In this document: piece by piece, positions 43,375-43,875 of the stretch
Numbering within the stretch: the first letter of the stretch is position 1
Layout of the letters: each line of letters starts with the position of its first letter
Source of the DNA: Escherichia coli
GTDB taxonomy: Bacteria; Pseudomonadota; Gammaproteobacteria; Enterobacterales; Enterobacteriaceae
Assembly (NCBI RefSeq): GCF_003790525.1
Contig: NZ_CP033635.1
Direction: 5' to 3' (one strand)
Length of the DNA: 64,000 nt
Made by a program: the position numbers and the translations under genes
Notes under the pieces: model-generated
Databases searched by the model: none
What the model was told of the DNA's origin: nothing
The model's input: only the letters and a program-made list of their open reading frames with translations

Positions 43375-43497
43375 GTATATTTATCAGGATCTAAAGGTTT
43401 ATAACCCTGGATATATCAGGTATATAATCCAGTACCAGCATGTCTCATAAACATACCCGTTCAGGAAAACCAAACGACAACAGATGAGGCTTCAGAA

Positions 43498-43875
43498 ATG
43501 AACAGTAAAGAAAATTTGCGCAGTAGATTTTTGCAACTAATGACAGAAAAAGTTAAATCAGCGCTACTTCCACTTATGGTGGATAATAACGAAGCAACGA
43601 GCAGCATCCTTGCAGACCCTTACGGTAAACTCTCGCATAAAACGCTGGATATTATTATGAGTGCATTAACACCCCGTATGCTTCAACACCTGAAACAAGA
43701 TATTAACGCATGGGTGAATGAAGAATTGAGCCCCCCCTGTTCATGGGACAGACATTATGCATGGCAGCAAAAAATGAGGATTTTCAATTCATTATCACTA
43801 AAGTTCAGAGAACCGAAACAGCGTCCCTTCCCTCTGGAATCAGATAAAAAACAACCTGATCCCACAGGCCCGTAA
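43498..43875 (+). CDS. hypothetical protein, antisense moron inside the lysis cassette
   Basis: 125-aa ORF with GAGG 8 nt upstream and a TATATAAT -10-like element at ~43428; no recognisable domain. Confidence 0.5.
   Translation: MNSKENLRSRFLQLMTEKVKSALLPLMVDNNEATSSILADPYGKLSHKTLDIIMSALTPRMLQHLKQDINAWVNEELSPPCSWDRHYAWQQKMRIFNSLSLKFREPKQRPFPLESDKKQPDPTGP

Follow-up and report, generated by a model that had tools for sequence, protein, structure and literature searches.

An antisense PHROG 1853 gene in the lysis region of an Escherichia coli prophage: a probable moron-type accessory gene

A Plus-Strand Gene within the Lysis Cassette

What is an open reading frame (ORF) that runs against the late genes doing between the holin and endolysin genes of a lambdoid prophage? 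The question is posed by a window of 64,000 nt, which is the whole stretch of DNA that we analyzed, from Escherichia coli (assembly GCF_003790525.1, contig NZ_CP033635.1), in which a lambdoid lysis cassette on the minus strand occupies 42.0–44.3 kb (table 1). A preliminary description of this locus had noted that holin and endolysin are separated by about 650 bp holding an antisense, plus-strand ORF, and the layout is as described: the gap measures 657 bp, contains the ORF, and has the flanks that had been reported. In phage PhiR46_1, a related holin (75% nucleotide identity) abuts the lysozyme directly, without an insert; the gap is thus an insertion relative to this simple layout.

Table 1. 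Features of the lysis region in the window and PHROG 1085 genes of related loci (the latter in the coordinates of each locus)
Feature	Position	Strand	Details
Target ORF, 125 aa, ATG start	43498-43875	+	codons 1-104 (43498-43809), PHROG 1853 core; codons 105-125, read-through tail
TATAAT -10 box within GTATATAATCC	43423-43428	+	70 nt upstream of the ATG
GAGG, Shine-Dalgarno-like	43486-43489	+	8 nt before the ATG; weaker in close relatives (GAGA or GAAA)
Two adjacent hairpins	43929-43951, 43956-43980	+	between ORF stop and holin stop
Holin, 90 aa	44032-44304	-	phrog_1350, E 3e-29; PhiR46_1 homolog annotated as holin
Endolysin (lysozyme), 177 aa	42841-43374	-	phrog_7, E 9e-63; PGAP: lysozyme
Rz spanin	42383-42859	-	phrog_13, E 1.6e-77
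Rz1, embedded in Rz	42442-42624	-	phrog_3198, E 1.4e-28
bor-like outer-membrane lipoprotein gene	42070-42351	+	phrog_260, E 3.2e-55; GC 0.43
tRNA-Arg(TCT), phage gene upstream of holin	44720-44796	-	
tRNA-Met/Ile(CAT), phage gene upstream of holin	44798-44873	-	
PHROG 1085 gene, L002 (outside the window)	3292-4098		
PHROG 1085 gene, L007 (outside the window)	3824-4399		
PHROG 1085 gene, L013 (outside the window)	1710-2264		
PHROG 1085 gene, L016 (outside the window)	4338-4895		

The surroundings of the ORF have several features of their own. The N-terminus of the endolysin (43303–43374, minus strand) resembles a SAR-type signal-anchor, as in R of phage 21. The 90-aa holin falls outside class II, the usual partner of SAR-type endolysins, and this combination is consistent with a recombinant cassette. 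A minus-strand ORF that overlaps the holin gene (43914–44255) has no PHROG match and was taken as spurious. An Rfam search of positions 42300–45400 matched tRNAs alone; in addition to the two tRNA genes of table 1, a third tRNA-like match at 44645–44717 (minus strand) falls below the threshold (19.8 bits). Within the Q–holin region, a complete IS5 (45328–46523) separates the phage tRNA genes from the porin gene; its terminal inverted repeats are GGAAGGTGCGAA/TTCGCACCTTCC, and its target, TTAG, is duplicated. The porin-gene position of a near-identical prophage (L001) is occupied in the window by a 368-aa plus-strand ORF (46672–47778) that is antisense to the late operon; the L001 porin gene is annotated by PGAP as a pseudogene with an internal stop.

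By its profile match the ORF belongs to PHROG 1853: residues 1–102 of its product align with profile positions 57–158 of 159 (E = 4.8e-41), and the protein resembles no named family. Searches of protein databases, phage records, E. coli genomes, assemblies, and IMG/VR yielded homologs at 21–80% protein identity, and in an alignment with 13 relatives the frame stays open down to 21% protein identity. A codon alignment of seven loci gives dN/dS values of 0.13–0.38 in all 18 pairs with measurable dS, and variation falls on 56, 47, and 85 columns at the first, second, and third codon positions, respectively; the remaining five frames of the ORF region contain 2–14 stops each. Structure prediction with AlphaFold2, using an alignment of 14 sequences, supports with high confidence (mean pLDDT 91.8, pTM 0.82) that the protein folds as a five-helix bundle. 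The protein is predicted to be soluble and basic (pI 9.4), with neither a signal peptide nor a transmembrane segment (maximum Kyte–Doolittle value over 19 residues of 0.76). Given the PHROG 1853 match, the homologs, the dN/dS values together with the sole open frame, and the confident fold, we conclude on sequence evidence that the ORF is a genuine gene of a family under purifying selection. That it is instead a chance ORF, or the mere template of a cis-antisense RNA, is scarcely credible: the region is AT rich, the Shine–Dalgarno sequence is weak in relatives, and ORF length differs between database entries, but the purifying selection is restricted to the ORF frame, which is open even in the most divergent homologs and has a confidently predicted fold, and the length variants are accounted for by frameshifts, stop loss, and differing start-codon calls.

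The preliminary description had recognized no domain in the protein, and neither did our searches: Pfam gave no match for the window protein or for any of 14 family members, and NCBIfam gave none for the window protein. A profile search of the PDB returned only two designed helical proteins (E ≥ 0.013), which we take as chance matches, and a Foldseek comparison with viral models found nothing; no fold match was informative. A 1344-aa HEAT-repeat protein (P0033) found in a large representative search was rejected as low-complexity similarity through its repeats. All sources label both the PHROG 1853 protein and the partner described below as “hypothetical,” literature searches found no study on the PHROG 1853 gene, and neither the sequence searches nor those with the predicted fold gave a pointer to a specific activity or target.

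Distribution and Expression Signals

Members of PHROG 1853 are present in 673 of 5426 complete E. coli genomes (~12%), including O157:H7, O145, and O111, and in only 4 of 50,697 phage records, with Stx2 phages among the carriers. The gene is antisense to the holin, endolysin, and late genes in each of the 57 loci examined. Stx2 phage 86, Stx2a phages, and numerous E. coli prophages have it between the holin plus a late gene on one side and the endolysin on the other; a Salmonella-type prophage, like metagenomic contigs that carry other holin families, has it upstream of the first holin; and in a further context, it is flanked by a different holin on one side and by a co-oriented porin gene on the other. 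Across these contexts the gene travels as a unit and is seen beside holins of four unrelated families and endolysins of two types. In two heavily decayed cassettes, L004/L005 and L006, the ORF is intact and the endolysin, partner, and neighboring genes are fragmentary.

Individual loci provide further detail. In L010/L011, the PHROG 1853 gene is ~400 bp upstream of the porin gene and on the same strand. The IMG/VR loci of the Stx2 phage 86 type (L027–L049) encode a 104-aa ORF that is 100% identical across ~25 loci; the adjacent partner varies (84–100% identity), as does the holin (77–97%), and within this mosaic region the ORF lies in a block of unusual conservation. L020, from E. coli O157:H7 FRIK2455 (1287081–1295506), is an IS-ridden prophage remnant with an adjoining PerC-family gene and no partner; its copy (WP_000138558.1) is called as 90 aa, yet the 104-aa reading from MNSKE is open.

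The preliminary description credited the ORF with its own promoter. A candidate -10 box is present, as the hexamer TATAAT within TATATAAT at 43421–43428, and the hexamer is identical in six of eight close relatives (the window, L004, L006, L010, L020, and L021), in which the surrounding intergenic sequence varies; more distant relatives do not have it. In the -35 region, however, no hexamer exceeds 4/6 matches, and it is for want of a better -35 hexamer that a generic promoter scan did not call the site. The start codon of the endolysin gene is 49 bp from this -10 box of the divergent ORF. The proposed ribosome-binding arrangement, GAGG-N8-ATG, was confirmed at the position given in table 1. 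No canonical terminator was seen downstream of the ORF. The second of the two hairpins that follow it (43956–43980) has an 11-bp stem followed by UUCCCGGAUUUUGUU, with a poor U tail and a fold z-score (-0.98) that is not significant, and could be a candidate weak terminator for the plus-strand transcript. Canonical loci offer no room for a terminator, because the partner gene extends over the 3′ end of the ORF.

Other elements were noted upstream of the ORF. An inverted repeat in the 5′ leader (GTCTCA-N13-TGAGAC, 43440–43470) is conserved in close relatives (L004, L007, L010, and L020); it reaches 10 bp in L010, and in the window its 3′ arm has mutated to TCAGGA. More distant relatives have, in place of TATAAT, a GC-rich hairpin composed of GCCCGCCAGYG, a variable loop, and CACTGGCG, followed by a T-rich sequence; it is located at ~2900–2925 in L002 and also upstream of the ORF in L003, L013, and L016, and it is conserved, with a G-U-compatible change in one arm in L013. 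A possible LexA box at CTGTCTCATAAAC was rejected by eye, the ACAG half-site being missing.

The Convergent PHROG 1085 Gene and the Stop-Lost Window Copy

The most constant neighbor of the PHROG 1853 gene is a late-strand gene of PHROG 1085, to which it is arranged tail to tail. The PHROG 1085 proteins are 185–270 aa long and are composed of a variable N-terminus and a conserved C-terminal block (MKRIGRCMGYLQVAAEIE...PPFK...YLKGRI). The pair is present in L002, L003, L007, L013, L016, L021, and L012 as well as in ~28 IMG/VR loci, and in several loci the two genes share 20–33 bp at their 3′ ends. The pairing spans E. coli to Salmonella and includes the most distant PHROG 1853 member (21% identity), and the tail-to-tail pair is the ancestral arrangement. 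In Stx2 phage 86, the partner contains an N-terminal YdfR/DUF1327 domain; for YdfR of the Qin prophage, binding to the catalytic half of RNase E has been reported (PMC13232886). In the window, tblastn and sensitive blastn searches of positions 43810–44031 for a remnant of the partner gave only nonsignificant matches (E ~0.5–0.8), one of them on the wrong strand; we therefore claim no remnant, and the window lacks the partner gene. Intact ORFs without a full partner occur in six lineages (the window, L010, L017, L020, L004, and L006), which argues against a strict dependence of the PHROG 1853 gene on the partner gene.

The window copy differs from the rest of the family in its length. The family norm is 104–105 aa, ending in KFR; at the family stop position (43810–43812), the window has GAA where relatives have TAA (TTCAGAGAACC and TTCAGATAACC, respectively). 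This stop loss adds 21 codons, whose product was modeled with low confidence in the first structure model and is disordered, and similarity to other loci stops ~8 nt past the lost stop, near 43819. The 125-aa gene of the preliminary description is thus confirmed as an ORF, but its last 21 codons, which result from the TAA-to-GAA change, lie outside the conserved gene. The exact window allele is found in 19 of the 5426 complete E. coli genomes, mostly poultry isolates. The ORF also contains a C7 tract (43731–43737, plus strand) that is C6 in 2 of 19 near-identical genomes, on different haplotypes; the C6 version causes a frameshift and yields a 92-aa product. This variation could represent slippage-prone decay, on/off switching, or sequencing error. 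NCBI PGAP marks near-identical copies in other genomes as an incomplete pseudogene, and given this call and the frameshifts at the C7 tract, the window copy may be nonfunctional. Private substitutions at otherwise invariant positions number three in the window copy and 0–4 in its relatives; given that they are no commoner than in relatives, we rejected relaxed constraint in the window lineage. The window copy is a stop-lost orphan that may be drifting toward a pseudogene.

Proposed Role and Comparison with Known Systems

The definition of a moron (Hendrix/Juhala) and the classic late-region cases, bor and lom of lambda, are summarized in PMC2629481. The preliminary description regarded the site of the ORF as a classic moron position, and part of this reading holds: the gene is an antisense insert in a lysis cassette, its presence is patchy (as PhiR46_1 and the 673 carrier genomes illustrate), and its base composition deviates from that of its neighbors (GC of 0.39 in the ORF core and 0.37 in the upstream spacer vs. 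0.52 in the endolysin, 0.48 in the holin, and 0.43 in bor); as signals of transcription, a conserved TATAAT box and a hairpin with a poor U tail were seen. The low GC content, the conserved -10 box, and the patchy presence fit a moron like bor. We consider it probable that the ORF is a moron-type accessory gene of lambdoid E. coli and Salmonella prophages that encodes a lysogen protein expressed from its own promoter and acting by binding a partner, and that the window holds an orphan copy of it. In this proposal, a σ70 promoter that includes the TATAAT box would transcribe the ORF while the prophage is silent, and after induction, head-on late transcription antiterminated by Q would shut it off, making the protein specific to the lysogen; such silencing is what would be expected of antisense morons such as bor. 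The five-helix protein would not be an enzyme but would bind a partner molecule. Given the conserved pairing, the leading candidate for this target would be the late protein of PHROG 1085 or the equivalent protein of a related phage that enters the cell. The intact orphans leave room for an independent function that would benefit the host or the prophage.

A more specific version of this relationship is possible, although we hold it only tentatively: the two genes would form a module in which the ORF protein is the antidote or regulator of PHROG 1085 and neutralizes its leaky expression in the lysogen, and the window copy would be a functionless, decaying relic. The conservation of the pair from E. 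coli to Salmonella, down to the 21%-identity member, and the 3′ overlaps speak for such a module, as do the lost stop, the recurrent frameshifts, and the PGAP pseudogene call of the window allele. However, intact orphans persist in six lineages, the window copy has no surplus of private substitutions, and toxin–antitoxin pairs are rarely convergent. Measured against what characterizes toxin–antitoxin systems, co-inheritance with phrog_1085 is seen, neither gene is homologous to known toxin–antitoxin families, and the PHROG 1085 partner resembles no toxin and no known family. More speculatively still, the 104-aa protein and PHROG 1085 could together be a so far undescribed two-gene switch of the lysis region of lambdoid prophages, in which a protein made only in the lysogen, and silenced by late transcription from the opposite direction, checks a late function; if so, that function would act on lysis, RNA metabolism, or competing phages. 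The convergent pairing is the sole feature of this locus that could prove to be new biology.

The preliminary description suggested a lysogenic-conversion, effector, or defense function for the ORF, and none of these ideas gained support. The PADLOC search was empty, and the protein has no signal peptide or transmembrane segment and resembles no named family. A role as a lysogen-expressed superinfection-exclusion or antiphage defense protein is improbable. The gene is antisense and moron-like, it lies in a region that hosts other lysogen-expressed genes (bor, porin), and its ORF is intact in degraded prophage remnants, all of which would be compatible with defense; yet PADLOC-DB 2.0 contains no family that matches the ORF protein or three partner proteins even at E ≤ 1, the product is a single small soluble protein without enzymatic or membrane features, and the fold matches are uninformative.

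We give still less weight to an accessory role in lysis, as an antiholin or lysis-timing regulator acting on the adjoining holin or endolysin. Most loci have the ORF inside or adjoining the lysis cassette, but it is on the opposite strand to the lysis genes in all loci, and late transcription therefore cannot express it. The protein also has no transmembrane segment, and a specific lysis partner is hard to reconcile with the variety of lysis genes beside the ORF, which include four unrelated holin families and two types of endolysin. Of the properties expected of a holin, antiholin, or lysis accessory gene, a transcription unit shared with the lysis genes conflicts with the opposite strand in all 57 loci, and a membrane segment was not found in the window protein. 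Known antiholins and lysis regulators (lambda S107, T4 RI, and P1 LydB) are likewise lysis-cassette genes, but they are co-transcribed and membrane-associated, whereas the ORF is antisense, encodes a soluble protein, and occurs with several unrelated holin types.

That the protein is a secreted virulence effector, or a factor of lysogenic conversion directed at the animal host, is very unlikely: the family is common in STEC genomes (O157:H7, O145, and O111) and present in Stx2 phages, but the protein has no similarity to effector families or Pfam domains, the window allele stems mainly from poultry isolates and Salmonella prophages carry the family as well, and the ORF is located in the lysis region rather than in effector loci, which in EHEC prophages sit beyond the tail-fiber genes.

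The ORF is an ordinary, uncharacterized prophage accessory gene for a lysis region; it represents a small, confidently folding, uncharacterized family found in about one-eighth of complete E. coli genomes and in Stx2 phages, and prophage genes antisense to the late operon are the usual source of lysogen-expressed fitness, exclusion, and regulatory functions. Its conserved pairing with a second uncharacterized late gene provides a concrete and easily testable two-gene hypothesis, for which the window copy, as a derived and possibly decaying orphan, is not the best copy to study.

Direct homologs of the ORF, with 46–80% identity over 104 aa, include orf6/gp06 of Stx2-converting phage 86 (YP_794053.1) and E. 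coli WP_000138558.1. In phage 86 and the O157:H7 prophages, the gene occupies the same antisense slot between holin and endolysin as in the window. In contrast to phage 86-type loci, the window copy is 125 aa long owing to the lost stop and has no adjacent PHROG 1085/YdfR-type gene, and the window holin belongs to phrog_1350 rather than to class II.

For the convergent pair, an analogy is offered by the immI region of P22 (mnt/arc/ant/sar), a moron inside the late operon with a lysogen-expressed regulator in the opposite orientation, which controls the neighboring late-strand gene with an overlap of antisense RNA (PMC2629481). This system could serve as a model for how the ORF and its partner might work. 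The likeness is one of analogy only, given that Mnt and Arc of P22 are ribbon–helix–helix proteins, unlike the five-helix bundle predicted here, and there is no relationship in sequence or fold.

A comparison in kind is with bor of lambda, a homolog of which lies 1.1 kb away in the same cassette of the window. The protein predicted from the ORF is cytoplasmic, helical, and unrelated in sequence to Bor, an exported lipoprotein for which a host phenotype has been described. Both genes, however, are small, are located at the lysis cassette and read against the late operon, have a lower GC content than their neighbors, and are present in only some related phages. The ORF is a member of PHROG 1853 and a homolog of orf6 of phage 86, and in kind the gene is probably a moron comparable to bor.
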